Shown: positions 1,924 to 63,148 of the stretch, in pieces | Layout: each line of letters starts with the position of its first letter | How positions within the stretch are numbered: the first letter of the stretch is position 1 | Assembly (NCBI GenBank): GCA_964385105.1 | Contig: CAYLMU010000001.1 | Coordinates: 194,252-258,251, forward strand | Origin: an uncultured Candidatus Saccharibacteria bacterium | GTDB taxonomy: Bacteria > Patescibacteriota > WWE3 > UBA101185 > UBA10185 | DNA: 64,000 bases | Direction of reading: 5' to 3' | Program-made: the position numbers and the translations under genes | The notes under the pieces: model-generated | What the model saw: the letters and a program-made list of their open reading frames with translations, nothing else | What the model was told of the DNA's origin: nothing | The model's database searches: none

Positions 1924-3128
1924 TTTTGTTTGAGCATTTCTAAATAAATTACACTTAACGTAGCCGGAACAACAAATTCTGAATGTTCCAGAATTCCGGT
2001 AATATCTTTAATAAAATCTAAATTTTGTGCGTTTATCTTATTAAACTCCGGAGGTTTCTTAAATGGAATAGATTTTGTCCAGGGTTTTGTTTCAAGCGCA
2101 TCATTTAATACCGGAACTTTGCTCCCTCCGCCAGTTAAATAAATATCCGAAGCAAAAGTTTTAACACCCTCAAATTCACCAAAAACGATTTCAAGTCCTT
2201 CTAGCCATGTATTTGCAACATCAGTCAAAGAACTTTCAATCTTAATTATATCGCTATCTTGCAGATTCCCTACCAGATATTCATATTTAAGCTTTTCTGC
2301 CTCAGCTAGCGTTAAATTAAAATCTCTGCTTAATTTTTTCGTAAAATGAGAGCCTCCTATACTGAGGCTTTTTGATGCTACAAGCCCTCCTCCAAACACA
2401 ATACCTACTTGAGTTGAGCTGCTACCTACGTCAATAATTATTCCGTCTACTACTTTGTTTTTACGTTTTATTACTTCGGTTATTGAATATAAGTTTGAAG
2501 TTATGGCTAAAATGTCCATCTTCATTAATGATGCCAGTTCTTGCAAATGATTAAGGTGATATTCAGGTGAAAAGGCTGTATATGTTGCTGTTTCTATTTT
2601 AGTACCTGATTCCCCTTCCAGCTTATGTATATAATCATTGTCAAGTTTTGTATAAACATTTGCTTTTGTAATTAATGCAAGTTCTGTTTCAATGTCGCCT
2701 TTGTTTTTTAATAAAAGGTCGTGTGCTTCCGAATAGGCCGAATCTATAGTTTTATCATTAACTTCGTCGATTTCTTTTTGTAATATTGGTTCAGGCTTGG
2801 GGCGGGTTACTCTTACTGTAGTTACAAGTGAAATACAAAGATCACCGCTTACGCCAAAAATTATGTGGTCAGGTTGAATATCAAGCCCTTCCCCTGCTCT
2901 ATATAAAGCTTCATCTAGCGCAACTGCAGTCTTATCTAAATCAACTATATTTCCTGATCTAACCACTCCCTGCTCCAAACTTTGCTTATTTGCCCCCTTT
3001 AACTCAAGTGTTTTGTTTTGATCATCATATTGAAAAATTAGACATTTTACTGCATTTGTTCCAATATCAGCAACTGCAAATGTGGTAGGAAACTCTCGTT
3101 TTTTAAGCTTTAAAGGCAGTTTAAACAT
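1920..3128 (-). CDS. FtsA/PilM-family actin-like ATPase (402 aa)
   Basis: N-terminal phosphate-1 motif AVADIGTNAVK. Central IIIDVGSSSTQVGIV and LSIGGSHFTKKLSRDFNLTLAEAEKLK segments are typical of FtsA/PilM. C-terminal LTGGGSKVP precedes an amphipathic tail. The genomic context (next to a T4CP-like ATPase, not ftsZ) argues for a PilM-like/secretion role over divisome FtsA. Confidence 0.6.
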   Translation of the reverse strand: MFKLPLKLKKREFPTTFAVADIGTNAVKCLIFQYDDQNKTLELKGANKQSLEQGVVRSGNIVDLDKTAVALDEALYRAGEGLDIQPDHIIFGVSGDLCISLVTTVRVTRPKPEPILQKEIDEVNDKTIDSAYSEAHDLLLKNKGDIETELALITKANVYTKLDNDYIHKLEGESGTKIETATYTAFSPEYHLNHLQELASLMKMDILAITSNLYSITEVIKRKNKVVDGIIIDVGSSSTQVGIVFGGGLVASKSLSIGGSHFTKKLSRDFNLTLAEAEKLKYEYLVGNLQDSDIIKIESSLTDVANTWLEGLEIVFGEFEGVKTFASDIYLTGGGSKVPVLNDALETKPWTKSIPFKKPPEFNKINAQNLDFIKDITGILEHSEFVVPATLSVIYLEMLKQK

Positions 3129-3148: not shown

Positions 3149-5572
3149 TTAAAAAGGTATTAGTTTCCTTGGATCAACTTGACTTGGCATTGGCTCAGGT
3201 TCAGGTTCAGGGTTGTAACCCGCGCGTTCATTAATAAACTCTTCAACTTCGGCTACCGGTGTACCGTACCGCTCTCTAGAATCTTTGCGAATTCTCTCGG
3301 CAATCTCATCACTTTTTACAGTTTGATTTACAACATCCCAGTCAACCATAGCCGAAAAGGGAACAGTAGGGTGGCCTTTAACCAGCAATCTAATATAGTA
3401 ATTTCCTACCGGAAGGTTAATAAGGTCACTTTGTGTAAAAATTGGTTCAAATTGTTGTTCAAGGTATTCAGCATCATCAACACCAACTCTAAATGATACT
3501 GTTGTACCCACATTACCAAACACAGCTTCTTTTATTTCCTCCTGTAGTTGGGCTACAAACTGGTGTGCCACCGTTAGATTTAGTTTATATTTTCTTGCCT
3601 CGGATAATATTGTTGCAAAGTCATCTGTGGCAAAATTTTGAAACTCATCAACATATAGGTAAAAGTTAGGAAACTCTTCTTTTCCAAGCAATGAGGCACG
3701 AGCTAAAGCTGCAGATAGAATTCTAGGTACAATCAGTAATCCCAAAAAGTTTGAGTTTTCTTCACCGATTTTACCTTTTGATAAATCAACGAGTAATATT
3801 TTTTTATCACGCATCACCTGGTGTAAATTAAACGACGATTTCTTCTGACCAATAATATTACGCATTGTTCTTTCAGTAACCAGTCTGTCAAATTTAGACA
3901 CAAAATACCCCATCATTTCACCTTTTCTATTCGCTGTGGTCTTAGCCATTTCATCAGTCCAGTAGCGTTTTACAAGAGGGTCTGTGATTTTTGGTAAAAA
4001 TTGCTTAACGTACTCTTCATCAATCAGTAGCCTTAAAACATCCACCATGGTTGCATCCGGGTCAGACATTGCAGTTAACATAACATTTCTAATTGACCTC
4101 TCAAGTTGTGGACCCATAATACCTTGGCGATTCGGGTCATAAAGTTTATATAGCAATCCTATAAAAGAGTTAATAAGCATGTGTTTTTCTTCTTCTGTGT
4201 GAGCTTCAAGCATGTTTAACCCTACCGGATTCTCGGTGTCTGATACATCAAATAAAATAACATCATCTACTCTATGCTCAGGTATTTTTTTAAGTATGTC
4301 GTCAATATCACTTCCGTGAGGGTCGATAAATGCCAACCCTTCGCCGTTATAAATATCCTGAATTGCCAAGGTTTTCATAAATTCAGATTTACCTGTACCC
4401 GTTTGCCCGATAATATACATGTGCCTGGTTCTATCATCGGCATTCATAAATAACTTTTTCTCGGTATTTCTATAAACGTTTTTACCCAAATATAAGCCTT
4501 CTTCCGGAGTATTTGAAGGTGCAGGGGCTTTTCTGGCGGTTAACCACAAAATGTTTGGAGTTTGAATTTCTTTGCTTGGGAAGTGAAATATAGTGGCCAT
4601 TTCTTCAATGTTGAGAACCGTAATATTGCTGTATAGAACAATATCAAATATAGGAATCTGAAACGTTCGCGGTACCATTTTTCTATAAATAAAATTGCTG
4701 ATAAGTTTTTTTGTAAAAATGATTTTTCTGCGTCTAAAGTTACTATATTTTACATTTGTAAATTGTTCAAATGAGGTGGCTACATTATCAATATGATTTC
4801 GAGCCGAAATTTTGTCATCTGAAATTGCAACTATTCTGATTTTAAGTTCAAAGCCAGGTTTAGATGTTTTTTCTTCAACTCCTTCTAAAAATGCGGTATC
4901 AACCCTGATGTTTTTTTCAGGATTTGAGCTTTTATTATGAATGTGGCCTACAAATGCATTTCCTGCTCTTCTCCAACCACTGCCGGCCGGGGAAATTAAA
5001 TATTGTATTGCAACAACTTCTGTTTCTTTTAGTTTGCTTAATGACGATGTGACACTGCTTAATGGGTCTGTGGCTTCCATACTTTTGTATGTTTTAATAG
5101 GATAATATGGTGGTCCGCTTAGTTTTAGCTCAACAATCTCAGTAACTTTTCCTCGATCCCATATTTCGTTAGGGTCTATAACATCAATTTCTGCAGTAGG
5201 ATAAGCGCCATTTATTTGTTTCTCAACAAAATTAACCAGCTCATCAGGTACTACTACATAAAATCCAATACCTTCTTTTTTTGAAACTATTTCAAATGAA
5301 ATTCGCCGTTGTCCTTTAAATAGAGACTGAAAAAAACTTCTTCTAAAACCCATGAGACTGGCAAATAAATGTTCTGCTGCCTCTATTTCATATTCGTTTT
5401 GCGGGGGAAGTTTTATATGTAAAAAAGTCAGTTTATACTGGTGTGACTTAATATAGCTGTTTCTTCTCCAATATATAATTGAGTATATAAGCCATGAAAA
5501 AAAGCCAATTAAAAAGACAATATAAAACAAGAGCCAAAAAATGTTGTATAACAGCTGGCTAAAGTTCTCCAT
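3149..5572 (-). CDS. Membrane-anchored VirD4/TraG/TrwB-like (type IV coupling protein family) P-loop ATPase, 807 aa
   Basis: N-terminal TM helix (LLYNIFWLLFYIVFLIGFFSWLIYSIIYW). Walker A HMYIIGQTGTGKSEF followed by FIDPHGSDID. Walker B FYLYVDEFQNF followed by KYKLNLTVAHQFVAQL, resembling the T4CP/VirD4 xxQSxxQL motif. The C-terminus is acidic Pro/Glu-rich (PEPEPEPMP). A VirB4- or HerA/FtsK-type ATPase cannot be excluded from sequence alone. Confidence 0.6.
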   Translation of the reverse strand: MENFSQLLYNIFWLLFYIVFLIGFFSWLIYSIIYWRRNSYIKSHQYKLTFLHIKLPPQNEYEIEAAEHLFASLMGFRRSFFQSLFKGQRRISFEIVSKKEGIGFYVVVPDELVNFVEKQINGAYPTAEIDVIDPNEIWDRGKVTEIVELKLSGPPYYPIKTYKSMEATDPLSSVTSSLSKLKETEVVAIQYLISPAGSGWRRAGNAFVGHIHNKSSNPEKNIRVDTAFLEGVEEKTSKPGFELKIRIVAISDDKISARNHIDNVATSFEQFTNVKYSNFRRRKIIFTKKLISNFIYRKMVPRTFQIPIFDIVLYSNITVLNIEEMATIFHFPSKEIQTPNILWLTARKAPAPSNTPEEGLYLGKNVYRNTEKKLFMNADDRTRHMYIIGQTGTGKSEFMKTLAIQDIYNGEGLAFIDPHGSDIDDILKKIPEHRVDDVILFDVSDTENPVGLNMLEAHTEEEKHMLINSFIGLLYKLYDPNRQGIMGPQLERSIRNVMLTAMSDPDATMVDVLRLLIDEEYVKQFLPKITDPLVKRYWTDEMAKTTANRKGEMMGYFVSKFDRLVTERTMRNIIGQKKSSFNLHQVMRDKKILLVDLSKGKIGEENSNFLGLLIVPRILSAALARASLLGKEEFPNFYLYVDEFQNFATDDFATILSEARKYKLNLTVAHQFVAQLQEEIKEAVFGNVGTTVSFRVGVDDAEYLEQQFEPIFTQSDLINLPVGNYYIRLLVKGHPTVPFSAMVDWDVVNQTVKSDEIAERIRKDSRERYGTPVAEVEEFINERAGYNPEPEPEPMPSQVDPRKLIPF

Positions 5573-15348: not shown

Positions 15349-16068
15349 TCAACCATTTACTTGGCTACTTATCCCGGTTAAAAGCGCCTTTGCAGCTTTA
15401 GGATTAGGTGTAAGATCTAAGTTAAGAGATTCTTTAAAAACCAACATGCTTAAATTTTCAGCATATGTGTCAATAATATTAACCACGCCAAATCTTTGGT
15501 TTTTATTGGTATTATCAAAATTTATTATCTTTGCTCTATGAATCTCATCTTTTAAGTTGTTGTATATCGGACCCATGTCGAGCAATTCCTGAGCACCAAC
15601 CGTAATAATCAAATCAAAATCATAGCCTGTTACTTTAGCTTTAACTCTGTCTGTGGCAAAATCTTTTGGTACAGGACCAAGTTTTAAATAAAGCGTTTCG
15701 TTATTATGTGAATATTGGGCTTTAGCGGCCGGTGTGTTTGAATAATCTATTGCAACCATTAAATATCTTTCATTAAGCTCTGTTGTAATAAGTTCATCCT
15801 CAATAACACCTGCACAATCCTCAGGGATTTTACCCGAATAAATAAAACGGATGTTTTTTTGCATATTAGTCTCGGAATCTTCATATTTTTGCTTTAACAT
15901 GTAAAACAAACCGGCTGCGGCACAAAAAGAATTTCCGCGTGCGGTTTTTGAAGGTATGATAGCAATTTCCCTTGCATCATTTATTAAATTTACTACCTGT
16001 TCATTATCGTAGTTACTTACTTGCATTTTATTTAGTTGAGCAGAAAATAATTTGAAACTATTGTGCAA
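15349..16068 (-). CDS. DHH-family (NrnA/CnpB-like) protein with degenerate catalytic motifs; N-terminal DHH domain only (239 aa)
   Basis: Collinear with NrnA motifs but the key residues are substituted. IAIIPSKTARGNSFCAAAGL replaces the H-x-x-PDGDA-GS motif. LMVAIDYSN is the motif III equivalent. AKIINFDNTN sits where KIDHHPN (the DHH motif) occurs. NPKAAKALLTGISSQ resembles NTKAAELIYAGI. The infB-[DHH]-rpsO-pnp synteny is known from Actinobacteria/Firmicutes. Confidence 0.5.
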   Translation of the reverse strand: MHNSFKLFSAQLNKMQVSNYDNEQVVNLINDAREIAIIPSKTARGNSFCAAAGLFYMLKQKYEDSETNMQKNIRFIYSGKIPEDCAGVIEDELITTELNERYLMVAIDYSNTPAAKAQYSHNNETLYLKLGPVPKDFATDRVKAKVTGYDFDLIITVGAQELLDMGPIYNNLKDEIHRAKIINFDNTNKNQRFGVVNIIDTYAENLSMLVFKESLNLDLTPNPKAAKALLTGISSQVNG

Positions 16069-19888: not shown

Positions 19889-21181
19889 TTGTATACTATG
19901 TATATGATTGAATCAGAAATCCCCAACAATTACGGTACACATGAAATAAAAGTCGAAAAAGAGAGGCTGGGACCTTTAGAAATTGTTCATTTTGAAGGAA
20001 CTGTTGAAGAAACCCATAAGAGGCTTGGTGAAACAGTAAGAGACCAGGTGTGGTTGACGGCCGCGCGCAAATTAGAAGAATACGATTCATATGAAGATTT
20101 TTTAACAGATTTGCAAATGATGCACAGATGTCTTGAAGTTGTAAAAGACAAAAGCAATGATACAGAAATTGACCTACCAATAAGAAATGCAGTTAAAGAT
20201 TATGTTACTGCTTTACAATCCTGGGCAGGAGGTGCTTCATTACTTAATATTAATCACGAATATATTAAAAGGTTCGCTCAAGAATTCAATTTTGAAACCT
20301 CAGGTTCTTCTGAAGTTTTAGCATATTGGCTTCAAAATGATAATGTTGGATGTCAAAGCGGTATGTATAGAAAAGATGATGGTAATATTTTGGTTTGGCA
20401 TACAGAAGAAGATGTTGAAGATGAACCTGGCTCCAGATTTGATGCTATTAGAATTGGTCAATTTAGTTTAATCGGAGAAACTGGTGAAAGAGATGATAGA
20501 TATGCTTTAATTTATCCTGATTTACTCCCTGGTCCTGCAGCAGGTTTTGCACAAAACTTTTTTTATTCAATAGATTTTCAGAGCTTTCGACCCAATGAAC
20601 AGCCAAGTATTCTAGCAAATACTGCTGTTTGGGTTACATGGAAGCTTGGAGAAAGCAGAGATCCGGCAGAGGTGCTTAGAGCTCTAAGTCCCTATTATGA
20701 TGGATATACACTTAATACAGTACGTCGGTTGCCGGATGGTACACTGGAGTCAAAGAAATTAGAATTTGCGCATGGTTTAATTGCAGAATATAAATTAAAT
20801 GAAAATCCGGGAAGTAATCTTGTTTCAGCAAATGTTACTGAAGAGAACTCAGCAACCGAGCCAGCGCTCGATGAAATTGATGATGAAGAAAGTAACTATT
20901 ATGCAGGTAGAGTAAGAAGAACTAGACGTGCTCTTAAACTAATTGAGTCTACTGAATCAGGTGTTACACTTCAAACACTTCAGAGGATGCTCGCGTTTAG
21001 AGTAGGGAATCAGCCCCTTAAAGGCAGTGACGAGATGGAAAATGCTGCAAATTCAAATGTGGATGTTAAAGCTAAATTTGCTGTAATGTTCACACCTAAC
21101 GGTATGCAATTGGCTGTTTCGGCAGGTCCCGGAATAAGAAATGAAGAAGTTACTTACTTTGAATTTCAGATTTCTAATTAG
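19889..21181 (+). CDS. Hypothetical protein (430 aa) with a possible Cys/His catalytic pair (VGCQSGMY ... LVWHTEEDVEDE). Putative thiol hydrolase/transferase-like enzyme of unknown family.
   Basis: Long ORF. A conserved-looking Cys is followed 16 residues later by a His flanked by acidic residues. No confident family assignment is possible by eye. Confidence 0.5.
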   Translation: MYTMYMIESEIPNNYGTHEIKVEKERLGPLEIVHFEGTVEETHKRLGETVRDQVWLTAARKLEEYDSYEDFLTDLQMMHRCLEVVKDKSNDTEIDLPIRNAVKDYVTALQSWAGGASLLNINHEYIKRFAQEFNFETSGSSEVLAYWLQNDNVGCQSGMYRKDDGNILVWHTEEDVEDEPGSRFDAIRIGQFSLIGETGERDDRYALIYPDLLPGPAAGFAQNFFYSIDFQSFRPNEQPSILANTAVWVTWKLGESRDPAEVLRALSPYYDGYTLNTVRRLPDGTLESKKLEFAHGLIAEYKLNENPGSNLVSANVTEENSATEPALDEIDDEESNYYAGRVRRTRRALKLIESTESGVTLQTLQRMLAFRVGNQPLKGSDEMENAANSNVDVKAKFAVMFTPNGMQLAVSAGPGIRNEEVTYFEFQISN

Positions 21182-22261: not shown

Positions 22262-22990
22262 ATGTCACTTGAATCTGCCCCTGAAACAAGCAACGAAATA
22301 AAAGAGCCAGAATTAGAACCAGATTCCCCACGCGACTCTGAAGTTTTTTCACTTGCCGGATTTTTCGAACTTTCTCCCGATGAGAATCGACCTAAATTAG
22401 AGCTTGATGAAACCCCTGCTACACCTGAAGACTTAAAAGGTACAGTAATAGAATATAAAGATCCTTTAATAGAATTCAGAAGGCCTACGGTTGCGCCCGA
22501 AAAAATGACTCCGGACGATGCCAGACAGATGGCTGTTACACTAGTTGAAAATGCCTTGGAAAACGATTTATCAAATCGCGAAATGCTTGAAAAAATTTTA
22601 GCGGTACTTAACGAAACAGATAAAAGCCCAGAAAACTTAGATTTGGCAGAAGCATTTTTTTCCGGAATATATTACTCAGCTATTGATAGATATACACAAA
22701 AAGAATCTATGAGGTTACATGTTTCCGACCTTGTTGCCGGTGGAGGTGATGTGCAGACAAGCGAATACAGACAAAATCGGCAAGATAAAAATCCTGATCA
22801 AATCGAATTTACAGACGACTATGCAAATAGTTTACAACAACCTGCCAATAAAGAAGCACAAATAAAACTTAAAGAAAGGGAATCTGATATAGCTTACCGT
22901 GATGCACAATATACACAAAAAATGCTTGAATTTGTAAGAAGTCTTAAAGAACGTACTATCGAAACCCAATCCATTCAAACTCTTATTTAA
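22262..22990 (+). CDS. Hypothetical acidic protein (242 aa)
   Basis: ORF divergent from dnaJ. Asp/Glu/Pro-rich. No motif recognised. GC-richer codon usage than its surroundings. Confidence 0.4.
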   Translation: MSLESAPETSNEIKEPELEPDSPRDSEVFSLAGFFELSPDENRPKLELDETPATPEDLKGTVIEYKDPLIEFRRPTVAPEKMTPDDARQMAVTLVENALENDLSNREMLEKILAVLNETDKSPENLDLAEAFFSGIYYSAIDRYTQKESMRLHVSDLVAGGGDVQTSEYRQNRQDKNPDQIEFTDDYANSLQQPANKEAQIKLKERESDIAYRDAQYTQKMLEFVRSLKERTIETQSIQTLI

Positions 22991-34976: not shown

Positions 34977-35630
34977 TTATGATGTAATCAATTTATAGAA
35001 ATGTTGTGGGTCTAAGCTTGCATTTCCGATTAAAAAACCGTTAAGACCGTTTATGCTTTTGAGCTCCTTGATGTTTTCGCTGTTAACTGACCCGCCATAC
35101 AAGATTTTACCATTTTCAGGTAGTTTATGCTTCATGAAATTTACTTCCTTTTCAATGTTTTCTATGGGTTTTGCATTATAAACCCCGTCTTTCGATATGT
35201 TTTGCGGGTCTTCCCATGCAAGGATGACATTTTCTGCATAATATTTTTCAATATTTTGAGGGTCTGTAAAGCAAATTATAGGAATTATACCGTTTTCCAG
35301 GCAATTTGTTGCTTTTTTTAATACAATTTCCGCGTCTTCGCCTCTTTCGCTATGCCCGACAATACTGTATTTAACATAATTTTTTAGTTGAAATGTTCCA
35401 ACTTCACCTGTGTGAGCGCCTTTCTCATAAATTGAAACATCCTGGGATGCGAGTTCAATGCCTTTATTTTGTGCAATTTTATTTTGAACCAATTGTAAGT
35501 GTAAAAATGAAGGCGCAATAACAATATTGGCATTATGTGTTTGAGTTGAAATGTTTTTCCAATAATCAAACCACTGTTCAATTTCAGAAACCGACATATT
35601 CATTTTCCAGTTGGCAATAAAATATTTCAT
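34977..35630 (-). CDS. tpiA: Triosephosphate isomerase (short, 217 aa)
   Basis: Hallmark N-terminal IANWKMN. Catalytic region IVGHSERG. pgk...tpi synteny. Confidence 0.75.
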   Translation of the reverse strand: MKYFIANWKMNMSVSEIEQWFDYWKNISTQTHNANIVIAPSFLHLQLVQNKIAQNKGIELASQDVSIYEKGAHTGEVGTFQLKNYVKYSIVGHSERGEDAEIVLKKATNCLENGIIPIICFTDPQNIEKYYAENVILAWEDPQNISKDGVYNAKPIENIEKEVNFMKHKLPENGKILYGGSVNSENIKELKSINGLNGFLIGNASLDPQHFYKLITS

Positions 35631-35633
35631 AAG

Positions 35634-36467
35634 TTAAGCAAGTTCTTTGAGTACTTCTTCAATTAAGGTAGGCAGTGATTCAATATCTTCGTGTGTATAA
35701 TCATATCCTAAAACATTTAAACAAGAAAACAATACTCCAATATTTGAGTAAATATTTTTTGCATATGTACAAGCTACTAAACTATGTACAAGAACGTTTC
35801 CTCCTATTTCGCCGATTCTTGATTTACTGCACCCAACAGGGCATCCGGAACATGAAGGAAAAGTATCTTTACTTACTGTCATCTTGCCGACTTCGTTCAA
35901 AAGCTTGTGATACAGTTCTTCGTACTTTTCTTTATTTATTATTTTTTCGGTTTTGGTACCCGTTACAACAAGTCCGAATATATTTTTTTTGTCGAATTTA
36001 TCTTCGAGAAAGGTTTCGGGGGTTAAAAAGAAATCATCAAGCAAAAATTTTCCGGCCGCTTTTTTTATAATACTTCTTTTTCCGGGAAGTCCAAGTGAAG
36101 TTATTTCGGCTTCTTGTGATTTAAAACTGACTATTTCATTTTGAATATCAAGTATTACAGGCTGGGGGGATTTTCCATGGATTACAATTGAATCTACTCC
36201 CGAAAAAGCCAAACGTAATGAAAGTGATCCGCCGATATAGATATCTTCTACAACGCCCTCACTATAAAAAACTATAGATGTTTTTGAAACATAAGGAAAT
36301 TTTCCGTTTAAAGGCCCAACCGAGATAATAACCGGATCTTTGTCGATGTTATCAAGCAGCAGTTTTAAACCCAAGCCTACACCTCCGATATAAGGGTTGA
36401 GTTCAGGCAAAGATTTTACTTCAGATTCATGCGTACTTAAATTTATATAAAGTATTTTTTTGTGCAT
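35634..36467 (-). CDS. Truncated aldehyde:ferredoxin oxidoreductase-like protein: AFOR N-terminal domain plus a C-x2-C-x3-C motif, lacking the tungstopterin-binding domains (277 aa)
   Basis: Collinear with the AOR N-domain: ILYINLSTHESEVKSLPE / IGGVGLGLKLLL / VIISVGPLNGKFPYVSKTSIV / VDSIVIHGKSPQPVILDIQNEIVSF / NIFGLVVTGTK. C-terminal CSGCPVGC resembles the AOR [4Fe-4S] ligand motif. Confidence 0.6.
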   Translation of the reverse strand: MHKKILYINLSTHESEVKSLPELNPYIGGVGLGLKLLLDNIDKDPVIISVGPLNGKFPYVSKTSIVFYSEGVVEDIYIGGSLSLRLAFSGVDSIVIHGKSPQPVILDIQNEIVSFKSQEAEITSLGLPGKRSIIKKAAGKFLLDDFFLTPETFLEDKFDKKNIFGLVVTGTKTEKIINKEKYEELYHKLLNEVGKMTVSKDTFPSCSGCPVGCSKSRIGEIGGNVLVHSLVACTYAKNIYSNIGVLFSCLNVLGYDYTHEDIESLPTLIEEVLKELA

Positions 36468-36468
36468 A

Positions 36469-36750
36469 TTATTCCAGTAAATGCTCCTCGTCTACCTCGG
36501 AAGATTCTTCAACAGTAAAAACGCCTGTTGGGCATATGTTCTTTATTTTTTCAACTTTTAGCTTATTTACCGTTTTATCCATGTCAATAGTAAAAATCAC
36601 CTCACCAATCATATTCTCTTCCTGGTTTCTAAATATTCTTATCGGAGAGCCTTCTAACCCAAGTTTATTTAATTGTCTTTGAACTTCAATAACGCAAAGC
36701 TCACACCCTATGCAATTTTCGGGAAATGTAATTTTAATAATTTTAGCCAT
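36469..36750 (-). CDS. Small ferredoxin-like protein (putative 4Fe-4S)
   Basis: CIGCELC plus a distal CP (NICPTGVF) motif. 93 aa. Overlaps the pgk stop by 8 nt and abuts the mini-AOR gene. Confidence 0.55.
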   Translation of the reverse strand: MAKIIKITFPENCIGCELCVIEVQRQLNKLGLEGSPIRIFRNQEENMIGEVIFTIDMDKTVNKLKVEKIKNICPTGVFTVEESSEVDEEHLLE

Positions 36751-37720
36751 TAGCCTCCTTTTTGTAACCTAGGGCTTCAATCCCCGGTAAAGTTTCATTT
36801 ACAATGAATTCAAGCATTGCACTTCCGCCTGTAGACACCCAGTTTATATAATTTAACGTGTTTGTGCTTTTTAATGCAGAAATTGTGTCTCCGCCGCCTA
36901 CTACCCAATACGAGTTTGAGTTGGGGATTAATGAAGCAATTTTATTTGTGCTCGTTGCAAATTCCGGAACTTCAAATTGCCCTAATGGTCCTGCCCATAC
37001 AATAGTGTTTGAGTTTGTTATTATTTCTATATATTGCGCGGTTGTTTCAGCGCCAATATCGCGGGGATTATTTTGTTCGTCATAAATATAGTCTGTAGGA
37101 ATATGTAAATTTTGAGGAATTTGCTCATCCCAGTTTAATCCGATTAAGCCACCAAGCAAAACATTGTTTGCTATTTTAATAAATTTTGAAACTACCGGTT
37201 TTTTACTCTCAAGCTTTGCTCCTCCTACCAATACTGTAAGTGGTTTATTTGGCGATTTTATAACATTGCTTAATACCTCCACTTCTTTTTGCAGGTTTAA
37301 TCCGGCGTATGAAGGCAGTAAACCCGCTACCCCAACAATAGAAGCATGTTTTCTATGTGAGGTAGCAAAGCTTTCATTAATATAAATATCTGCTTTGGAT
37401 GCCAGTTCTTTTGAAAACTCGTTATCATTTGATTCTTCTCCGGGATTAAAACGCAGATTTTCTAAAAGTTCATATTGGTTTATGCCTAAATAAGTATCAA
37501 AATATGGTTTTAGTTTTTGCGTAGAAAGGTTGGAATCCTCTGAACCACCAGGTCTTCCGATGTGCCCAGCTATTACCGGAATAACTTTATTTTCTATCAA
37601 ATAGTTTAATGTAGGAAGCCCCGATTCAAGCCTAAAGTAATCGTTATCGGGTACATCAAGATCCATTCGTACCAGAGCTTTCATACCGGGCGTTAATTTT
37701 GCTTCTGTAAGTAGTCGCAT
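36743..37720 (-). CDS. pgk: Phosphoglycerate kinase (short, 325 aa)
   Basis: N-terminal VRMDLDVP...IPVIAGHIGRPGG. LENLRFNPGEE. C-terminal nucleotide-binding region GGGDT-like (VVGGGDTISAL). Confidence 0.8.
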   Translation of the reverse strand: MRLLTEAKLTPGMKALVRMDLDVPDNDYFRLESGLPTLNYLIENKVIPVIAGHIGRPGGSEDSNLSTQKLKPYFDTYLGINQYELLENLRFNPGEESNDNEFSKELASKADIYINESFATSHRKHASIVGVAGLLPSYAGLNLQKEVEVLSNVIKSPNKPLTVLVGGAKLESKKPVVSKFIKIANNVLLGGLIGLNWDEQIPQNLHIPTDYIYDEQNNPRDIGAETTAQYIEIITNSNTIVWAGPLGQFEVPEFATSTNKIASLIPNSNSYWVVGGGDTISALKSTNTLNYINWVSTGGSAMLEFIVNETLPGIEALGYKKEANG

Positions 37721-37780: not shown

Positions 37781-39880
37781 ATGGCGACATTAAAAGAATT
37801 GCGTGAGATTCACTTACAGAAATTAAACAGGCTAAAAGAGCTGGGAATTGATCCGTTTCCTGCACGTGTTAAAAAAGATTTTGAAAATGCACATGTAACT
37901 TCTAATTTTGAAGAATTTGAAGGTAAGACTATAAGTTTGGCGGGCAGAATTGTTTCATACAGAGAACATGGAGGTCTAGTTTTTATAGATATTAAAGACC
38001 AGTCGGGAAAAATTCAGGTTTATGTAAAAAAAGAAACACTTAAACCCACAAATGCTAAGCAACAAACTTTAGGGTTTGAAGATTTATCTTTATTGGATGT
38101 TGGAGATTATATTGAAGTAACAGGTGAGATAACAAAAACAAAAGCAGGTGAGATTTCAATAATGCCGGGTGGGTTAAGAATTTTGTCAAAGACTTTAAGG
38201 CCGCTACCTGAAGAGCTAAATAACAAAGAAACCAGAATGAGAAGGCGTTATGTTGATACTAAAGTTAACGAGGATGTTTTTGACAGATTTGTTCGAAGAG
38301 CTAAATTTTGGGAAGCGCACCGTAAATTTTTAAACAGTAAAGGGTTTTTAGAAATTAATATTCCTGTTTTAGAAAATATTCCGGGTGGGGCAGATGCAAC
38401 ACCTTTTGTTACACACATGGATGCAATTGACCAGGACTTTTTCTTAAGAATTTCACAAGAATTGTATTTAAAGAGACTTGTAGGAGGAGGTTATGAAAAA
38501 GTTTATGAAATTGGCCCTAGATTTAGAAATGAAGGATTGTCTGATGAACATTTGCCCGAACACATTGCTATGGAATTTTATTGGGCATATGCAAGTTGGG
38601 AAGAAGGAATGAAGCTAATTCAAGATTTATTTAACTATATTCTTGATGAAGTTTATGAAGGTAAAAGAAAGTTTTCAATTCGGGGTTTTGACGTTGATTT
38701 TACCGGAGATTGGGAAGTTATCGATTTTGCCGAAGTTATGAAAGAAAAATACAAAATTGATGTTCATAGTACCACGGTTGATGAAGTAGCAAAAATTTGT
38801 AAACAAAATGGAATTGAAGATGATTTTGCACAAAATCTGCATAGAGGAATTGATAATCTTTGGAAAAATTTGCGCCGTGAAATTGCAGGACCGGCGTTTT
38901 TAGTTAATCATCCAAAATATTTATCTCCGTTGGCTAAAGCAAAGGCGCATGAACCGCATGTTACCGAACGATTTCAGCCGATTATTGCGGGTAGTGAACT
39001 TGGTAACGGCTGGTCTGAAATTAATGACCCGGTCGATCAACTTGAACGGTTTAAAGAACAACAAAATTTGCGTGATGCAGGTGACGATGAAGCACAATGG
39101 CTAGATATTGATTATGTTGAAATGCTTGAGTATGGAATGCCTCCTACTTTTGGTTATGGTCATAGCGAACGTGTTTTTTGGTTTTTAGAAGATGTAAGCG
39201 CACGTGAAGGGGTTCCGTTTCCTCAGTTAAAGCATGTGGTAGATGACACAACATTAGAAATATATAATTTACCGCGTCAAAACACACTGCTTGCTATAAA
39301 CCCAAACTTAGATGATATCAATGAAAACGGCAATTTACCGTCACGGGAAGAGGCAGAATTTTTGCTAAATAAACATGTTAAAGACGACTATCAAAAATTG
39401 CACGCAAAAATGGTTGCATCAGCTTTAGAACAATATGCCGGGAAATTTAAAGCTAATAATGAGTTATGGTTTATAGCAGGACTTTTGCACGACCTGGATT
39501 ATTTTGAGTATCCCGATGAACATCCGAAAAAATCACTGGAGTGGTTTAAAGAAAAAGAGTACTCGGAAGCTTTAATGCATGCAATTGCTGCACATGCATA
39601 CCAAAGAACCGGCGTGGAGCCAAAAACAAAACTTGCAGCAGCTCTTATTGCTACGGATGAACTTTCAGGATTGTTGTATGCTTATTCGCTAATGCGACCG
39701 GAAGGTTTTAAGGGAATGAGTGCAGGCTCAGTAAAAAAGAAATTTAAAGATAAAGCATTTGCCCGAACCGTTGACCGAAATGACGTTTTATACGGCATAG
39801 AAAAACTTGGTGTGGATTTTGATGAGCATGTAAATTTTTTGATTAGTGTTTACAGTGAAATAGATGAGTTAAAAAAGTAA
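37781..39880 (+). CDS. lysS: Lysyl-tRNA synthetase (class II) fused to a C-terminal HD-domain phosphohydrolase (~200 aa)
   Basis: The N-terminal ~500 aa carry an OB anticodon-binding domain and class II motifs (FLEINIPVLE; RISQELYLKRL; GSELGNGWSEINDP; GMPPTFGYGHSERV). The C-terminal extension carries an HD signature: H(AKM)...LLHDLDY...HAIAAH...DELSG. Confidence 0.85.
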   Translation: MATLKELREIHLQKLNRLKELGIDPFPARVKKDFENAHVTSNFEEFEGKTISLAGRIVSYREHGGLVFIDIKDQSGKIQVYVKKETLKPTNAKQQTLGFEDLSLLDVGDYIEVTGEITKTKAGEISIMPGGLRILSKTLRPLPEELNNKETRMRRRYVDTKVNEDVFDRFVRRAKFWEAHRKFLNSKGFLEINIPVLENIPGGADATPFVTHMDAIDQDFFLRISQELYLKRLVGGGYEKVYEIGPRFRNEGLSDEHLPEHIAMEFYWAYASWEEGMKLIQDLFNYILDEVYEGKRKFSIRGFDVDFTGDWEVIDFAEVMKEKYKIDVHSTTVDEVAKICKQNGIEDDFAQNLHRGIDNLWKNLRREIAGPAFLVNHPKYLSPLAKAKAHEPHVTERFQPIIAGSELGNGWSEINDPVDQLERFKEQQNLRDAGDDEAQWLDIDYVEMLEYGMPPTFGYGHSERVFWFLEDVSAREGVPFPQLKHVVDDTTLEIYNLPRQNTLLAINPNLDDINENGNLPSREEAEFLLNKHVKDDYQKLHAKMVASALEQYAGKFKANNELWFIAGLLHDLDYFEYPDEHPKKSLEWFKEKEYSEALMHAIAAHAYQRTGVEPKTKLAAALIATDELSGLLYAYSLMRPEGFKGMSAGSVKKKFKDKAFARTVDRNDVLYGIEKLGVDFDEHVNFLISVYSEIDELKK

Positions 39881-46691: not shown

Positions 46692-48116
46692 TTATTCTAG
46701 TTGTTTGTATTGGGCAATGGCTTTAATTAATTCTTTAGCCATTGTGTCATACATCGCAGGTGCATAGCCGGCTCTTGCTACACTTTCCATATTTGCCATT
46801 ACTTCTTGGTAATATTTTAACTCACTTTTCAAAAATTCAATTCTTGTTCTAACTTCAGGTATATCTTGGAATTCTTTTTCCAAACTAATAACATCATCGA
46901 TGAAATCTCCAGCCATTAACTCAAATTGTCTGTTCAGTTCATTTTTTGACTCCTCAGAATTGAGATTTGCAACAATTGTATTTTTAACTTCTGTTAATGC
47001 GTTTAATACATTCTCAGGTGAGTCTTCCTGTTCCTCATTTGTTATGGATTCAACTTCCGGGGAGTTTCCATTTGGGCTAAATTTAGTTTGTTCAGCATTC
47101 ATTCTTGCTTTTCTTGCTCTTGGTGCTTCCATATATTCTCTCATTCTTTTTTCTTTTGGACTTTCTGTTGGTTCAGGTTCAATCACTTGACCATTTTGGT
47201 TTTGTAGAGCTTCTGCAACTGCTGCCCTAACAATATCTGCCAAACTCTCTTGGCTTTCTGCTCGTTCTTGGGCAATTTGCTCTTTTAGTTTTTCTATTTC
47301 GGCTTGACGTTTAGCATCTGCTTCGGATAGTTGTTGCTGAAATTTTTCCTGTTCAGCCTTTCGTGCTGCTTCTTGCTCTTCTAGTTGTTTTTTTAAGCTC
47401 TCAATTTGTGCTGATTGTTGCTCATTAATACTTTCTATAGATGTAAGTTTTTCTTTGATTTCTGCATTTGTTGTTTTTAGCGCTTCAGTAATTTCTGTAT
47501 TAGTTTGCGGGCCGTATCTTAATTTGCTGTAATCATAAGGTTCTTTCTTTTCCCGTTCTTTTGGTTTGAGTACATTTTTATTAAATCGCTCCTGACGTAC
47601 CAATTCTTCTCCTTTTGATTGAATCAACTTTTTTAAATTTGGGTCTTTTGTCAGGTCAATCTTTGTTCCTTTATAGTCTAGTTTATTAAGTTCTTCTAGA
47701 CCTCCCATTCTTCTTACTGCTTCGGGGCCACCTGATTCTCTTACCCAAATTTTTGCCAATTCCGTTACTTCGTCATTACCTCGTAAATTTTTTACTTCTT
47801 CTATTGTTGGTCTGAATAATTTATTTTTAAATCTTTCCAAATGCTCACGCATACTAATTCTAGTTTCTTCAACAGCTTGGTTTATTTCGTTTGTTTTTTC
47901 CGGATGTTCTCTTGAAGCTTGTGCCGCTGCTTCTTGGGTCACCTGTACTGCACTCGCCGTGCGTATGGCGGCATTTTCAGCAGCTTCTTGTGGAGATAGA
48001 GTTTCATTATTTTCTCTTTCTGTATCTCCCTGGTCTGTATTTTCCGGAGGATTTTCAGGTTCTGCACCAGTCGCTGAGTGTCCATTCATTTTATATTCTG
48101 CATCCACTATAGCCAT
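46692..48116 (-). CDS. Hypothetical coiled-coil protein (474 aa; Glu/Gln/Lys/Ala-rich)
   Basis: Long ORF with extended heptad-like charged repeats (QLEEQEAARKAEQEKFQQQLSEADAKRQAEIEKLKEQIAQERAE). No enzymatic motif. Confidence 0.5.
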   Translation of the reverse strand: MAIVDAEYKMNGHSATGAEPENPPENTDQGDTERENNETLSPQEAAENAAIRTASAVQVTQEAAAQASREHPEKTNEINQAVEETRISMREHLERFKNKLFRPTIEEVKNLRGNDEVTELAKIWVRESGGPEAVRRMGGLEELNKLDYKGTKIDLTKDPNLKKLIQSKGEELVRQERFNKNVLKPKEREKKEPYDYSKLRYGPQTNTEITEALKTTNAEIKEKLTSIESINEQQSAQIESLKKQLEEQEAARKAEQEKFQQQLSEADAKRQAEIEKLKEQIAQERAESQESLADIVRAAVAEALQNQNGQVIEPEPTESPKEKRMREYMEAPRARKARMNAEQTKFSPNGNSPEVESITNEEQEDSPENVLNALTEVKNTIVANLNSEESKNELNRQFELMAGDFIDDVISLEKEFQDIPEVRTRIEFLKSELKYYQEVMANMESVARAGYAPAMYDTMAKELIKAIAQYKQLE

Positions 48117-59765: not shown

Positions 59766-62534
59766 ATGAATTCAAAGAACTTTTTGTCCTCTTTATTGAA
59801 TGTTAATTATTGGCTGCTCACTGCAGGTATGAATTTTGTAATCTCAACATTAGTACTGCTTGGTATGTTTTCGTTTGGCATGTTTAATGCAGGTACAACC
59901 CTGGGTACAAGCACGGTGACTTTGAGCCCACGACAGGACACAACTGTAAAAGAAGATTATGCCACAAGAAATTATGGATCCGATTCCGAGCTCATTTCAG
60001 ACGGAAAACCAAAAAGAATTGCCTATTTACAATTTGATCTTTCAAGTATTAATCGCTCACAAACCATAACAAGTGCTGTTCTTCGAGTAAGAACAACATC
60101 AAACGCTGAATCAAGGGATGTAAGGAAGAATATTAGGTTGGTAACAAACAACAGCTGGAACGAGTCAAGCATGACTTGGAGAAACAGACCTTCAGTTGGA
60201 ACAAGCATTGGATCATTGCGAACTTCAGTGAGGGCTAATCAAACTTATGATATTAATCTAAGTGCTGCACATGTACAACCATATGCAGGTAGAACTTTTT
60301 CTTTGGCTATAGATGACACCTCAAACGGATCTATACTCACATTAAACTCAAAAGAAGCACGTAGTGGCTCTCCTCAGTTAATACTAACTGTTGAGACGCC
60401 TGATGTTAAAAATACACCGCCTGTTGCCAGAATTAATACAAACACAACTTCCGGAAATGCTCCTTTAACTGTTGAATTTGATGGAAGCAGGTCATCTGAT
60501 GCTGATGGGAATATTGTTGCTTATTCATGGAATTTAGGTGATGGAAATACGTCAAACGATCAAAAAGTCTCACACACTTATGTAAAATCAGGTGAATATA
60601 GAATTCAGCTTACAGTAACTGATAATAGTGGAGCTACGGCTTCAGCCAACACAACTATAAATGTAACAGAATCAGGGGGCGGAGATTCCGGTGGTAGAGG
60701 AAATGTTATTTTAACTCCAACTGATGACGCGCATGTGAAACAGTCTTATGGAGGAAATAGAAATTATGGTACTGATGCAACACTGGAATCCGATCAAATA
60801 CCAGATTCAGGATCAGCACGAGTTACTTACATTAAATTTAACCTCACACCTTATGCAAATGCCACACTAAATTCAGCCAGATTGAGATTGACTGTGAATA
60901 ACGGCTCATCTGATAGACAAAATATAAAGTTAATTGGTGATAATAACTGGAATGAAAATTCAATAACTTATCTAAACAGACCTTCAACAAGTTCCGCACA
61001 GATAGTTACAACGCTTAATAGTGTATCAACTAATCAAGTGCTGGATTTGGATTTAACAACAAATCTGCGGTCATATTTGGGACGTACTGCAACTATTGTT
61101 GTAGAAAATACCGGATCTGACAGAATGGTTTTGAATTCAAAAGAAGCAGGAAATGTTGTATTACGTCCTCAACTAACATTAAATATTGGCGGAGACACAG
61201 TACCTCCTCCACCGTCTAACCAACTTCCAACAGCAAGAATTACGGCAAATCCTGTAAACGGAGAAGCACCTTTAGCTGTGACATTCAATGGTTCAGGTTC
61301 AACAGACCCGGATGGAAGTATTGTTGCCTACTCATGGAATTTTGGAAACGGCTCACGTGCAACGGGAGCTTCAACATCACATACATATAATGTAGTTGGA
61401 AATTATACGGCAGTACTAACTGTTACAGATAATGCCGGAGGTCAGGCATCAGCAAATGTAACTATAAATGTTACGTCTACCACACCACCACCGCCTCCGC
61501 CACCACCTCCTCCCCCTCCTCCGCCACCACCGGGATCAACGGGCGGAATCTGGATTTCACGAGATGAAGTTAGAGCTTTACCAACAACAGGTGCTGCAAG
61601 TGCCGGATGGCAGAATGTGTTGACAGCTGCAAGCAATAACTTCAGTAGACCAAATATTGCAGATCAGAACGATCCGGATGATGTGTATGCATACGCAGCA
61701 GCCCTTGTTTATGCAAAAACCGGAGACGAAAGTTACAGAACTAGAGTAGTTGAAGCTATACGCAATGCAAGAGGAACCGACAACGGTGCAAGTATTTTAT
61801 CAGTTGCACGAAATATTCAGGCTTTGGTTATAGCTGCGGATTTAATAAATCTATCGGATTTTCCTTCTGAAGATCAGGCATTTAGAAGCTGGATTTCTAA
61901 GATGAGAACTACAGTTTACTCGGGAGCCGGACCGTCACTCTCTATAGTTACATGTCAAGAGCGAAGACCGAATAATTTCGGTACACACTGTGGCGCAGCA
62001 CGAATGGCTATAGATTTATATATTGGCGATACCGCTGATTTTAATAAAGCCGTTAATATCTATAAAGGTTATTTAGGTGATCGAAGCGCATACACCGGTT
62101 TTGTGTTTGGAGAGCTTTGTTACGCACATAGCCAAACACAACCTGTAGGTATTAATCCACCGGGTTCTACATTAAGAATTGGCAATAACGCCTATAATGC
62201 TGATGGTATATTGCCTGATGACCAAAGAAGATCAGGCTGCCCAGCAGAATATCCATATCCTGATGAAAACTATGTATGGGAAGCTTTGCAAGGTGTGACA
62301 GTACAAGCTGAAATATTACACAGAAGAGGTATGGATTCTTATAACTGGTCAAGTAGAGCATTATATAGAGCAGTAAACTGGCTCCATTCGGTAAATGGAT
62401 TTCCTGCAACAGGCGATGACCGATGGGTACCATGGATTATTAATAAAAGATACAGTACTTCGTTTCCAGCCCAGACTCCGGGGTCAGTGTCGGTTGGTAA
62501 AGGAATGGGATTTGCAGAATGGACACACAGATAA
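59766..62534 (+). CDS. Large secreted/surface protein: signal/anchor sequence, 2x [DNRLRE-like carbohydrate-binding-type domain + PKD domain], poly-proline linker, C-terminal alginate-lyase-like (alpha/alpha toroid) domain
   Basis: N-terminal hydrophobic segment. Two copies of ...YLQFDLS...LRVRT...NNSWNESSMTWRNRPS / ...YIKFNLT...LRLTV...DNNWNENSITYLNRPS, which is the DNRLRE-type signature. Two PKD-like units (PLTVEFDGSRSSDADGNIVAYSWNLGDGN...; PLAVTFNGSGSTDPDGSIVAYSWNFGNGS...). A run of 16 Pro codons. The C-terminal ~390 aa carry an NNFGTH motif reminiscent of the lyase NNHSYW motif (weak). Confidence 0.7.
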   Translation: MNSKNFLSSLLNVNYWLLTAGMNFVISTLVLLGMFSFGMFNAGTTLGTSTVTLSPRQDTTVKEDYATRNYGSDSELISDGKPKRIAYLQFDLSSINRSQTITSAVLRVRTTSNAESRDVRKNIRLVTNNSWNESSMTWRNRPSVGTSIGSLRTSVRANQTYDINLSAAHVQPYAGRTFSLAIDDTSNGSILTLNSKEARSGSPQLILTVETPDVKNTPPVARINTNTTSGNAPLTVEFDGSRSSDADGNIVAYSWNLGDGNTSNDQKVSHTYVKSGEYRIQLTVTDNSGATASANTTINVTESGGGDSGGRGNVILTPTDDAHVKQSYGGNRNYGTDATLESDQIPDSGSARVTYIKFNLTPYANATLNSARLRLTVNNGSSDRQNIKLIGDNNWNENSITYLNRPSTSSAQIVTTLNSVSTNQVLDLDLTTNLRSYLGRTATIVVENTGSDRMVLNSKEAGNVVLRPQLTLNIGGDTVPPPPSNQLPTARITANPVNGEAPLAVTFNGSGSTDPDGSIVAYSWNFGNGSRATGASTSHTYNVVGNYTAVLTVTDNAGGQASANVTINVTSTTPPPPPPPPPPPPPPPPGSTGGIWISRDEVRALPTTGAASAGWQNVLTAASNNFSRPNIADQNDPDDVYAYAAALVYAKTGDESYRTRVVEAIRNARGTDNGASILSVARNIQALVIAADLINLSDFPSEDQAFRSWISKMRTTVYSGAGPSLSIVTCQERRPNNFGTHCGAARMAIDLYIGDTADFNKAVNIYKGYLGDRSAYTGFVFGELCYAHSQTQPVGINPPGSTLRIGNNAYNADGILPDDQRRSGCPAEYPYPDENYVWEALQGVTVQAEILHRRGMDSYNWSSRALYRAVNWLHSVNGFPATGDDRWVPWIINKRYSTSFPAQTPGSVSVGKGMGFAEWTHR
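61485..61532 (+). repeat. Low-complexity CCN tract encoding 16 consecutive prolines (inter-domain linker)
   Basis: ccaccaccgcctccgccaccacctcctccccctcctccgccaccaccg. The antisense reading gives poly-Gly. Confidence 0.9.
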
Positions 62535-62548
62535 ACAATCATAAAAAC

Positions 62549-63148
62549 ATGAGAAAATTTTTATTTGGTTTTTTTATTTTGGGTCTTGGCGGATTACTTT
62601 TGACCGGGTTTATATTAAGTAACACTCCGGAAGCTGTACAAAATTCAGATTCGAGTGTTTTTAGCAGATTTTTGGGTAATACTTTTACCGGTAATAACGC
62701 TCCAGAACAGCCAACCGGTTCGGGTGAAATTGTTGAATTAGAAGACCCGATGATTAATATGCTTGAAGTTGATGAAGTAAGAGAAGTTGTAATAGACGAG
62801 GAAGATGCACTGGTAGCTCAACTAACCGATGTTTCAGGAGGCACTGGTATAGGTACTGCTTATCTACTTCGAGATGAAGGAACTTTATACCATTATGTCA
62901 CGGTGACTCTTCCCGGTGTTGAGGGTGAAAATTTTTATGAAAGTTGGCTGGTAAACGAAGAGACTAATGAATTCTATTCAACAGGACAATTACAAAAAGG
63001 TGCAAATGACACTTTTGAGCTTGGTTATTCGGAAAATAGCATGCTTGACGGTTACAACAAAGTTGTGATTACACTGGAAACAGTTTATGACGATACACCT
63101 GAAAAACATGTATTAGAAGGAACAGTAGTTGAGAGAATTTTGGAGTAA
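62549..63148 (+). CDS. Hypothetical N-terminally anchored exported protein (about 200 aa)
   Basis: MRKFLFGFFILGLGGLLLTGFILS signal/anchor followed by an acidic domain. The ORF-track start 62519 overlaps the upstream gene, so the Met at 62549 is preferred. Confidence 0.45.
   Translation: MRKFLFGFFILGLGGLLLTGFILSNTPEAVQNSDSSVFSRFLGNTFTGNNAPEQPTGSGEIVELEDPMINMLEVDEVREVVIDEEDALVAQLTDVSGGTGIGTAYLLRDEGTLYHYVTVTLPGVEGENFYESWLVNEETNEFYSTGQLQKGANDTFELGYSENSMLDGYNKVVITLETVYDDTPEKHVLEGTVVERILE

Follow-up and report, generated by a model that had tools for sequence, protein, structure and literature searches.

The fd-mini-AOR pair between pgk and tpi

The 64-kb stretch of DNA analysed here (the window; positions 194,252 to 258,251 of contig CAYLMU010000001.1, deposited as an uncultured Candidatus Saccharibacteria bacterium and placed in WWE3 by the GTDB) carries on its minus strand a tightly packed unit that begins with pgk, the gene for phosphoglycerate kinase (PGK), continues with two small open reading frames (ORFs), and goes on with tpi, the gene for triosephosphate isomerase (TPI or TIM), followed by lytR, holA, and a sortase gene. 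The first of the two ORFs, fd, encodes a ferredoxin-like iron-sulfur (Fe-S) protein of 93 amino acids (aa), and the second encodes a 277-aa relative of the large subunit of tungsten-dependent aldehyde:ferredoxin oxidoreductases (AORs), called mini-AOR in the following. The 3' end of pgk overlaps the start of fd by 8 nucleotides (nt) and contains, just upstream of the fd ATG, an AAGGAGG Shine-Dalgarno sequence for fd; the spacers between fd and mini-AOR and between mini-AOR and tpi measure 1 nt and 3 nt, respectively. The ORFs lie exactly where an initial annotation, made from the sequence letters, had placed them, and its description of a closely packed ferredoxin-like partner and of pgk and tpi as flanking genes was borne out (Table 1). 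Both glycolytic enzymes are unusually short; PGK covers the 379-position Pfam model in three stretches, and the PGK proteins of relatives measure 321-346 aa. Some Katanobacteria TIMs have been reported to group with archaeal sequences (Jaffe 2020).

A locus scan with one genome per species provided 77 loci, and those with informative labels belong mostly to candidate division WWE3, the closed genome CP006914.1 included, while many other records are labelled generically, e.g., as "uncultured Candidatus Saccharibacteria". The conservation of the gene pair in relatives, which the initial annotation had proposed to examine, is nearly complete: fd adjoins mini-AOR in the same orientation in 76 of the 77 loci. 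Wherever a mini-AOR or a still shorter "micro" form is encoded, the AOR-like gene always stays together with fd and tpi, even in very divergent members, and tpi directly follows the mini- or micro-AOR gene in every locus whose contig reaches that far. The dominant order is trx-gap-pgk-fd-miniAOR-tpi-lytR-holA-sortase, with the genes for thioredoxin (trx) and glyceraldehyde-3-phosphate dehydrogenase (GAPDH; gap) at its head, and trx-gap-pgk-fd-miniAOR-tpi is the ancestral order. In the clade of the window itself, lysS is divergent from pgk and trx-gap is located elsewhere; a tblastn search of the 64-kb window with an Escherichia coli GapA query detected no gap. The interval between pgk and tpi had been regarded as the classical position of GAPDH, but gap lies upstream of pgk in the relatives. 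As most of the 77 WWE3 loci carry trx-gap immediately upstream, the pair coexists with a classical GAPDH and does not occupy its position, and a replacement of gap by the pair was rejected.

Deviating arrangements were observed as well. In 12 of the 77 species the end of gap is only ~50-70 nt away from fd, and pgk was not detected within 7 kb; it has either moved or been lost, a point that would matter for what the pair does. One lineage has trx directly before fd-miniAOR-tpi with neither gap nor pgk in between, whereas elsewhere trx always precedes gap; this lineage may indicate a thioredoxin link. A very divergent lineage, finally, shows pgk-fd-mini-tpi-lytR beside a 3b-type hydrogenase cluster. 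In two loci the four genes of this group-3b-like [NiFe] hydrogenase (large and small subunits, a FAD/NAD-binding subunit, and an Fe-S subunit) are divergent from pgk-fd-miniAOR-tpi.

The pair is also highly conserved in sequence and length. A search of 5.8 billion proteins returned 410 clusters homologous to mini-AOR, and the best 120 of them are all 274-299 aa long, contain PF02730 only, and, where named, are assigned to WWE3 or Patescibacteria; full-length copies of 275-302 aa are present in 75 of the loci. Median identity to the window proteins amounts to 55% for mini-AOR, 52% for fd, 49% for PGK, and 45% for TPI, and the identity of mini-AOR exceeds that of PGK in 52 of 55 genomes and that of TPI in all 55. 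Judged by these comparisons, the pair is evidently under strong purifying selection. Database labels of the family read "AFOR N-terminal domain-containing protein" or, misleadingly, "aldehyde:ferredoxin oxidoreductase". Papers analysing mini-AOR proteins were not found: literature searches combining AOR or GAPOR (glyceraldehyde-3-phosphate:ferredoxin oxidoreductase) with WWE3, Patescibacteria, or the candidate phyla radiation (CPR) had no matches, a full-text search for AFOR_N/PF02730 returned noise only, and mini-AOR is not mentioned in Jaffe 2020. In Kantor 2013 the sole mention for WWE3 is of "a ferredoxin oxidoreductase-like protein" (PMC3812714).

Deletion map, cluster ligands, and longer relatives

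The affiliation of mini-AOR with the AOR family, and its collinearity with the AOR N-domain as claimed at the outset, is supported by profile, alignment, and fold. PF02730 (AFOR_N) matches residues 4-119 with an E value of 8.2e-23 and 81.6 bits (cut-off 29.8), the strong match being limited to profile positions 2-130 of 199, and the Pfam search gave no match to PF01314 (AFOR_C) at E<=1; the profile check suggested in the initial annotation thus left the AFOR_N similarity on solid ground. The protein is collinear with the AOR of Pyrococcus furiosus (PfAOR; 1aor) in that residues 5-117 correspond to 8-133, residues 117-195 to 155-230, and CSGCPVGC to Cys288/291/295, the remainder of the N-domain being represented by the weak alignment to 1aor residues 155-230. 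An AlphaFold2 model (pLDDT 84.9, pTM 0.87) yielded nine Foldseek matches in the PDB at E<=0.001, all from the AOR family (TMq 0.58-0.65), with 1aor at E = 5e-15.

The C-x2-C-x3-C motif indeed resembles the AOR ligands but does not end the protein, as had been assumed: it occupies residues 206-213, and 64 more residues follow, which carry C233. These were placed via intermediates of 538-554 aa, which proved necessary, as the C-terminal segment of mini-AOR was missed when a profile was compared with the PDB directly. BLASTP against the 538-aa CPR AOR-like protein P0163 aligned residues 4-213 to 7-276 (E = 4e-28) and, in a second collinear segment, residues 219-263 to 439-482 (E = 8e-8); the corresponding C-terminal region of a 554-aa relative aligns to 1aor 513-581. 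The distance from the Cys to G-[YW]-D-x-T is 19 residues in mini-AOR, in P0166, and in 1aor, and C233, in the motif HSLVAC, is therefore equated with Cys494, the fourth cluster ligand; the canonical form of the motif is DSLGLC. An assignment of the C-terminal ~60 residues to the first DxxGLD pterin motif after Cys295 was rejected, since BLASTP and MAFFT place them at the Cys494 region. Taken together, mini-AOR is an AOR large subunit with a ~160-aa internal deletion and a C-terminal truncation. The tungstopterin-binding part has been lost as initially stated, but the missing portion relative to a 600-aa AOR is ~320 residues, mostly in the form of an internal deletion, and not ~400.

What was retained and what was lost became clear from a MAFFT E-INS-i alignment of 55 sequences, 19 mini forms among them, and from the species genomes. 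All four Cys ligands are kept in 19/19 mini forms, and C206, C209, C213, and C233 are conserved in 76/76 genomes, as are K62, F147, G219, E220, and H259. The mini-AOR of the window holds only one further Cys, C249, which is found in 73/76 genomes and absent from the longer (545-aa) and micro forms described below. The PfAOR active-site residues Thr243, Glu313, Tyr427, and His448 (PMC13328260) have, by contrast, no counterparts: the segments for Thr243, Tyr427, and His448 are missing from the 277-aa sequence, and the columns of Glu313 and Asp338-Asp343 are gaps in the mini forms (Glu313 in 19/19). Of the two pterin motifs, the first DxxGL(C/D) (338-343) is deleted and the second corresponds to HSLVAC, with Asp changed to His. 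PfAOR Arg182 is replaced by the invariant Phe147 and Arg76 by Lys62; in the 1aor structure Arg76 touches the pterin phosphate beside the cluster. The 2026 classification of tungsten-containing oxidoreductases (WORs), which comprises 4,000 members, selects on both domains of the large subunit (WorL), i.e., IPR013983/PF02730 and IPR001203/PF01314 (PMC13328260). By these standards mini-AOR does not qualify as a catalytic WorL while keeping the predicted Fe-S module, and since selection needs both domains, the survey misses it.

The fd protein of the window has exactly four Cys in the arrangement CxxCxxC...CP, enough for one cluster, and C13, C16, C19, and C73-P74 are invariant columns of the family alignment; the pattern recurs in the fd of 74/76 genomes, and exactly four Cys are present in 64/76. 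Pfam matches are sub-threshold (Fer4, 19.4 bits with a cut-off of 21.1; Fer4_15, ~18 bits with a cut-off of 22.4). The closest full-length relatives of the large subunit outside the CPR (P0316 and P0317, ~580 aa) are accompanied by a small Fe-S gene that overlaps the AOR start and encodes several cluster motifs. In hhalign, the CPR fd family profile matched the N-terminal 75 residues of such a subunit, a 139-aa Fe-S protein whose gene overlaps the start of a full-length AOR, with a probability of 96.2% and E = 2.3e-9. The best PDB profile matches are HycB3, 9mqx_E (the Fe-S subunit of a bifurcating W-AOR), the WOR5 small subunit, whose alignment spans nearly the whole length of fd, and AorA. 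The fd protein has moreover lost the last Cys of the first CxxCxxCxxxC motif, a residue that would serve as ligand to a second cluster. On the strength of the hhalign result, the PDB matches, and the lost Cys, fd is therefore classified as a putative one-cluster remnant of the small Fe-S subunit of the AORs (WorS) and not as a generic ferredoxin.

Forms of other lengths arrange themselves around the mini-AOR. When a profile was run against 1.8 billion representatives, the mini forms made up ~35 half-identity clusters, and the next tier consists of 538-554-aa proteins from Patescibacteria with AFOR_N plus AFOR_C. This "545-aa" class (537-578 aa; P0166, P0298, P0274, and others), whose sole annotation is "AFOR N-terminal domain-containing protein", occupies the slot trx-gap-(x)-pgk-fd(79 aa)-AOR545-lytR-holA...S20-murJ-lepA, in which tpi is lacking, and its members are by synteny orthologues of mini-AOR. 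They share with it the motifs D-[DE]-F-F (Arg182 replaced by Phe) and S-K-T; Asp338 has become Tyr, Trp, His, or Asn, the His448 motif ARHSHL has become ATTEEN, and the Fe-S cysteines have been lost in 5/21 members, while Thr243, Glu313, and Tyr427 are mostly kept. These proteins, which score 18-30 bits with the GAPOR model NF040818, may constitute a second, larger class of cofactor-less AOR relatives. At the other extreme, micro-AOR proteins of 198-217 aa have been reduced to the first part of the N-domain with the Cys module and the C-terminal helix; the 217-aa P0189 is encoded in pgk-fd-micro-tpi-lytR, and further examples are P0188 and P0212, the latter without the CxxCxxxC motif.

Table 1. 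Positions of the features discussed; numbers refer to the window unless a related locus is named
Feature	Positions	Strand	Description
pgk	36743-37720	minus	325 aa; PF00162, E = 1.2e-72; first gene of the packed unit
fd	36469-36750	minus	93-aa predicted single-cluster Fe-S protein; reduced homologue of WorS/AorA/WOR5-S
fd, CIGCELC (C13-x2-C16-x2-C19)	36694-36714	minus	three putative [4Fe-4S] ligands (translation and invariant columns)
fd, C73-P74	36529-36534	minus	remote fourth putative cluster ligand
mini-AOR	35634-36467	minus	277 aa; WorL/AOR large subunit with internal deletion and C-terminal truncation
mini-AOR, residues 4-119	36111-36458	minus	best-kept part of the AOR N-terminal beta domain
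mini-AOR, K62	36282-36284	minus	invariant; at the PfAOR Arg76 position
mini-AOR, CSGCPVGC (C206-x2-C209-x3-C213)	35829-35852	minus	equivalent to PfAOR Cys288/291/295, [4Fe-4S] ligands
mini-AOR, C233 in HSLVAC	35769-35771	minus	equivalent to PfAOR Cys494, fourth [4Fe-4S] ligand
mini-AOR, residues 219-277	35637-35813	minus	retained piece of AOR domain 3 (~PfAOR 489-540), fused directly to the cluster loop; includes C249 (near-invariant) and H259 (invariant)
tpi	34977-35630	minus	217 aa; PF00121, E = 1.6e-43; follows mini-AOR
545-aa-form loci	L009; L010 9001-10644; L011 9001-10638		
Micro-AOR P0189	L008 466-1119		217 aa
gap-fd loci without nearby pgk	L020, L021, L036, L043, L069, L072, L081, L082, L084, L086, L087, L088		
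trx-fd-miniAOR-tpi locus	L007 850-2695		
3b-like hydrogenase clusters	L005 2781-6599; L006 2804-6622		four genes
PilM/FtsA-like ATPase	1920-3128	minus	
TraG-D_C-like protein	3149-5572	minus	807 aa
Lysyl-tRNA synthetase fusion	37781-39880	plus	699 aa
CBM96/PKD protein	59766-62534	plus	922 aa
ORFs without Pfam match	388-1923; 15349-16068; 46692-48116	minus	
ORFs without Pfam match	19889-21181; 22262-22990; 62519-63148	plus	

Interpretation of the pair and its alternatives

The reading we favour, with a probability of roughly 55%, is that of a cofactor-stripped WorL/WorS pair that functions as a two-cluster electron-transfer module co-expressed with the triose-phosphate enzymes, which comes close to the "novel small Fe-S redox module tied to lower glycolysis" of the initial annotation. 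The simplest history would be a reduction in four steps. A heterodimeric Class II (WorL plus WorS) tungsten-oxidoreductase cassette would have entered the pgk locus of a CPR ancestor and become fixed there, and would then have lost the canonical cofactor contacts. In WWE3, the loss of ~160 internal residues, ~55 C-terminal residues, and parts of domain 1 would have removed the pterin-binding and catalytic domains and left the beta domain with the four cluster Cys, and still more would have disappeared in the 198-217-aa forms. The small subunit, a polyferredoxin with several (classically four) clusters, would have been cut back to one. By analogy with the GOR of Caldicellulosiruptor bescii, a GOR-like glyceraldehyde-3-phosphate (GAP) oxidoreductase is a plausible ancestor.

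As the WorL cluster core, the supporting beta domain, and the proximal WorS module are still selected, we infer a two-cluster heterodimer in which fd would bind mini-AOR in the way WorS binds WorL and two [4Fe-4S] clusters would come within electron-transfer distance. Such a complex could be a dedicated low-potential carrier or a ferredoxin-like relay, co-translated and made in step with PGK and TPI, and might trade electrons with enzymes of this fermentative cell at the ferredoxin level such as pyruvate:ferredoxin oxidoreductase (PFOR) and hydrogenase or report their redox state. The occurrence of PFOR and a 3b hydrogenase in WWE3 (PMC3812714) points to a ferredoxin-level metabolism. Oxidation of GAP or other aldehydes by the module would be excluded, because the catalytic and pterin domains are missing. 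Several observations nevertheless weigh against a simple electron-transfer role. The ~370 aa of the pair are a costly means of carrying two clusters in a streamlined genome and hint that the pair does something more specific, perhaps in catalysis or regulation, and the invariant polar residues K62, D75, R85, the G-L-P-G-K-R-S loop, G219-E220, and H259-E-D are not explained by a pure wire. The structural model of fd, with a pLDDT of 54.7, is too uncertain to be used in a fold search. Synteny, moreover, is generally frozen in the phylum, where lytR, holA, and the sortase gene are equally fixed, and adjacency to pgk and tpi is for this reason weaker evidence of a glycolytic role.

The unexplained residues and the cost of the pair lead to two other readings. 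An unlikely one makes the pair a redox-sensing or regulatory pseudoenzyme that senses oxidant or the state of ferredoxin and modulates GAPDH, PGK, TPI, or thioredoxin by binding, without a role in an electron-transfer pathway. Strong purifying selection on a protein whose catalytic apparatus is gone, the constant linkage to trx, gap, pgk, and tpi, with trx abutting fd-miniAOR-tpi in one lineage, and the many invariant surface-type polar residues would suit such a sensor, but a recognisable regulatory or DNA- or protein-binding domain is absent, the complete conservation of the four ligands of both predicted clusters is what a stable electron carrier would show, and the synteny is perhaps mere frozen gene order. 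It is still more doubtful that the pair is a new pterin-free Fe-S enzyme of core CPR carbon metabolism, in which the old pterin-phosphate face is reused for a phosphate-bearing ligand or protein and fd is the donor or acceptor, e.g., in a ferredoxin-dependent reduction of thioredoxin or oxidised GAPDH or in a triose-phosphate conversion. The invariance of K62 at the position of Arg76, with its pterin-phosphate contact, would accord with an enzyme of this kind, and so would the invariant or near-invariant R85, K130-R131, E74-D75, and H259-E-D, the adjacent trx, and the fifth Cys. All four cluster ligands are protein Cys, however, so that there is no open iron site, and a CPC/CHC motif like that of ferredoxin:thioredoxin reductase (FTR) is lacking. 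Thiol chemistry of the FTR type is weakened by the absence of C249 from 3/76 mini forms and from all micro and 545-aa forms; this Cys also has no partner for a disulfide. Oxidation of aldehydes to acids at the potential of ferredoxin is not known to proceed without pterin or thiamine pyrophosphate. Were this reading true, the enzyme would represent a new catalytic use of the AOR scaffold.

A tungsten- or molybdenum-dependent aldehyde (GAP) oxidoreductase that is split, with the pterin domains supplied in trans by a separate AFOR_C protein and serving a GAPOR-type bypass, is very improbable. A precedent for such a bypass is the glyceraldehyde-3-phosphate-oxidising WorLS enzyme of Caldicellulosiruptor bescii (CbGOR), which works beside GAPDH in glycolysis (PMC13328260), and the ancestral 545-aa form is located inside a gap-pgk operon. 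A search with the 554-aa CPR query, however, found no stand-alone AFOR_C except one fragment on a 1.6-kb contig, the deletion is internal and not a clean domain split, and Phe already stands in place of Arg182; in the 545-aa forms Asp338 and the His448 motif have been replaced as well. Genes for Mo, W, or pterin metabolism are absent from the window and not mentioned for the complete WWE3 genome (PMC3812714). The GAPOR model NF040818 gives mini-AOR a mere 11.2 bits (cut-off 1300; E = 0.078), and the GAPOR-type route envisaged at the start is not supported. A recent pseudogene fragment or an assembly artefact, finally, could be suspected from a length under half that of a normal AOR, but is next to impossible: the size of the family, its uniform length, and an identity above that of PGK and TPI exclude a pseudogene or a decaying relic, and the full-length copies come from independent species genomes, the closed one included. 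The notion of a degenerate remnant was dropped for the same reason.

The locus forms part of a graded syntenic series, in which the large subunit declines from ~600 via ~545 and ~280 to ~200 aa and the small subunit from multi-cluster to one-cluster, while the Fe-S site and the partner subunit remain strongly selected throughout. All this takes place in the metabolic operon that is most conserved in a CPR phylum; TIM, GAPDH, and PGK are the universal core of the CPR. Such a series is a natural experiment on which part of a metalloenzyme stays useful once its cofactor can no longer be made, and it draws attention to a redox component of the sparse WWE3 metabolism that is highly conserved yet uncharacterised. 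Mislabelling by annotation pipelines as "aldehyde:ferredoxin oxidoreductase" could yield wrong metabolic reconstructions.

Surrounding window and comparison with known systems

The rest of the window, with a G+C content of 35-40%, consists of housekeeping genes. A Pfam survey of 30 other ORFs found no redox, Mo/W, or pterin genes, and neither tRNA genes nor Rfam matches at the gathering threshold were detected in the 64 kb. Lysyl-tRNA synthetase is fused to a C-terminal HD-domain phosphohydrolase, and the fusion is kept in the related loci L002 and L004 (703-704 aa). A secreted-type glycan-binding or glycan-degrading protein with two CBM96 modules, two PKD domains, and an alginate-lyase-like region is unusually large for such a small genome. 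The 807-aa protein, which has only a weak match to TraG-D_C (type IV coupling protein-like) and adjoins a PilM/FtsA-like ATPase, possibly belongs to the pilus or DNA-uptake machinery that CPR bacteria commonly have. Six ORFs of 209-511 aa have no Pfam match at E<=1e-5.

Among known systems, FTR is distant from mini-AOR, which lacks the CPC...CPC...CHC motifs and has no corresponding Pfam or NCBIfam match. Archaeal GAPOR is a ferredoxin-using member of the superfamily with a link to glycolysis, but specific similarity is absent, and GAPOR replaces GAPDH plus PGK, whereas the mini-AOR operon has both. Single-cluster ferredoxins of the CxxCxxC...CP type (Fer4_15/Fer4_13) resemble fd in Cys pattern and size; unlike such free ferredoxins, fd has its nearest detectable relatives in the polyferredoxin subunits of AOR and hydrogenase complexes. 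The 545-aa CPR proteins, partly degenerate in their own right, differ from mini-AOR by the retained AFOR_C and ~160 extra internal residues. PfAOR is the best match in sequence and fold, with all four cluster Cys equivalents kept and Arg76 exchanged for an invariant Lys; compared with its 605 aa, part of domain 1, most of domains 2 and 3, and the last 60-65 residues at the C-terminus are deleted in the 277-aa protein.

The Class II WORs, represented by P. furiosus WOR5/ASOR (6x1o/6x6u) and by CbGOR, a bacterial heterodimeric GAPOR of the WorLS type (PMC13328260), offer a close parallel. Unlike Class II WorL, mini-AOR lacks PF01314, the four active-site residues, and the pterin motifs, so that canonical binding of the tungsten cofactor should be impossible and aldehyde oxidation is not expected, and fd has one predicted cluster where Class II WorS has four (IPR017896). 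Both systems nevertheless have the small Fe-S gene immediately upstream of the large-subunit gene and translationally coupled to it, the large subunits have the N-terminal beta domain and the four [4Fe-4S] Cys in common, and fd is homologous to the N-terminal module of Class II WorS.

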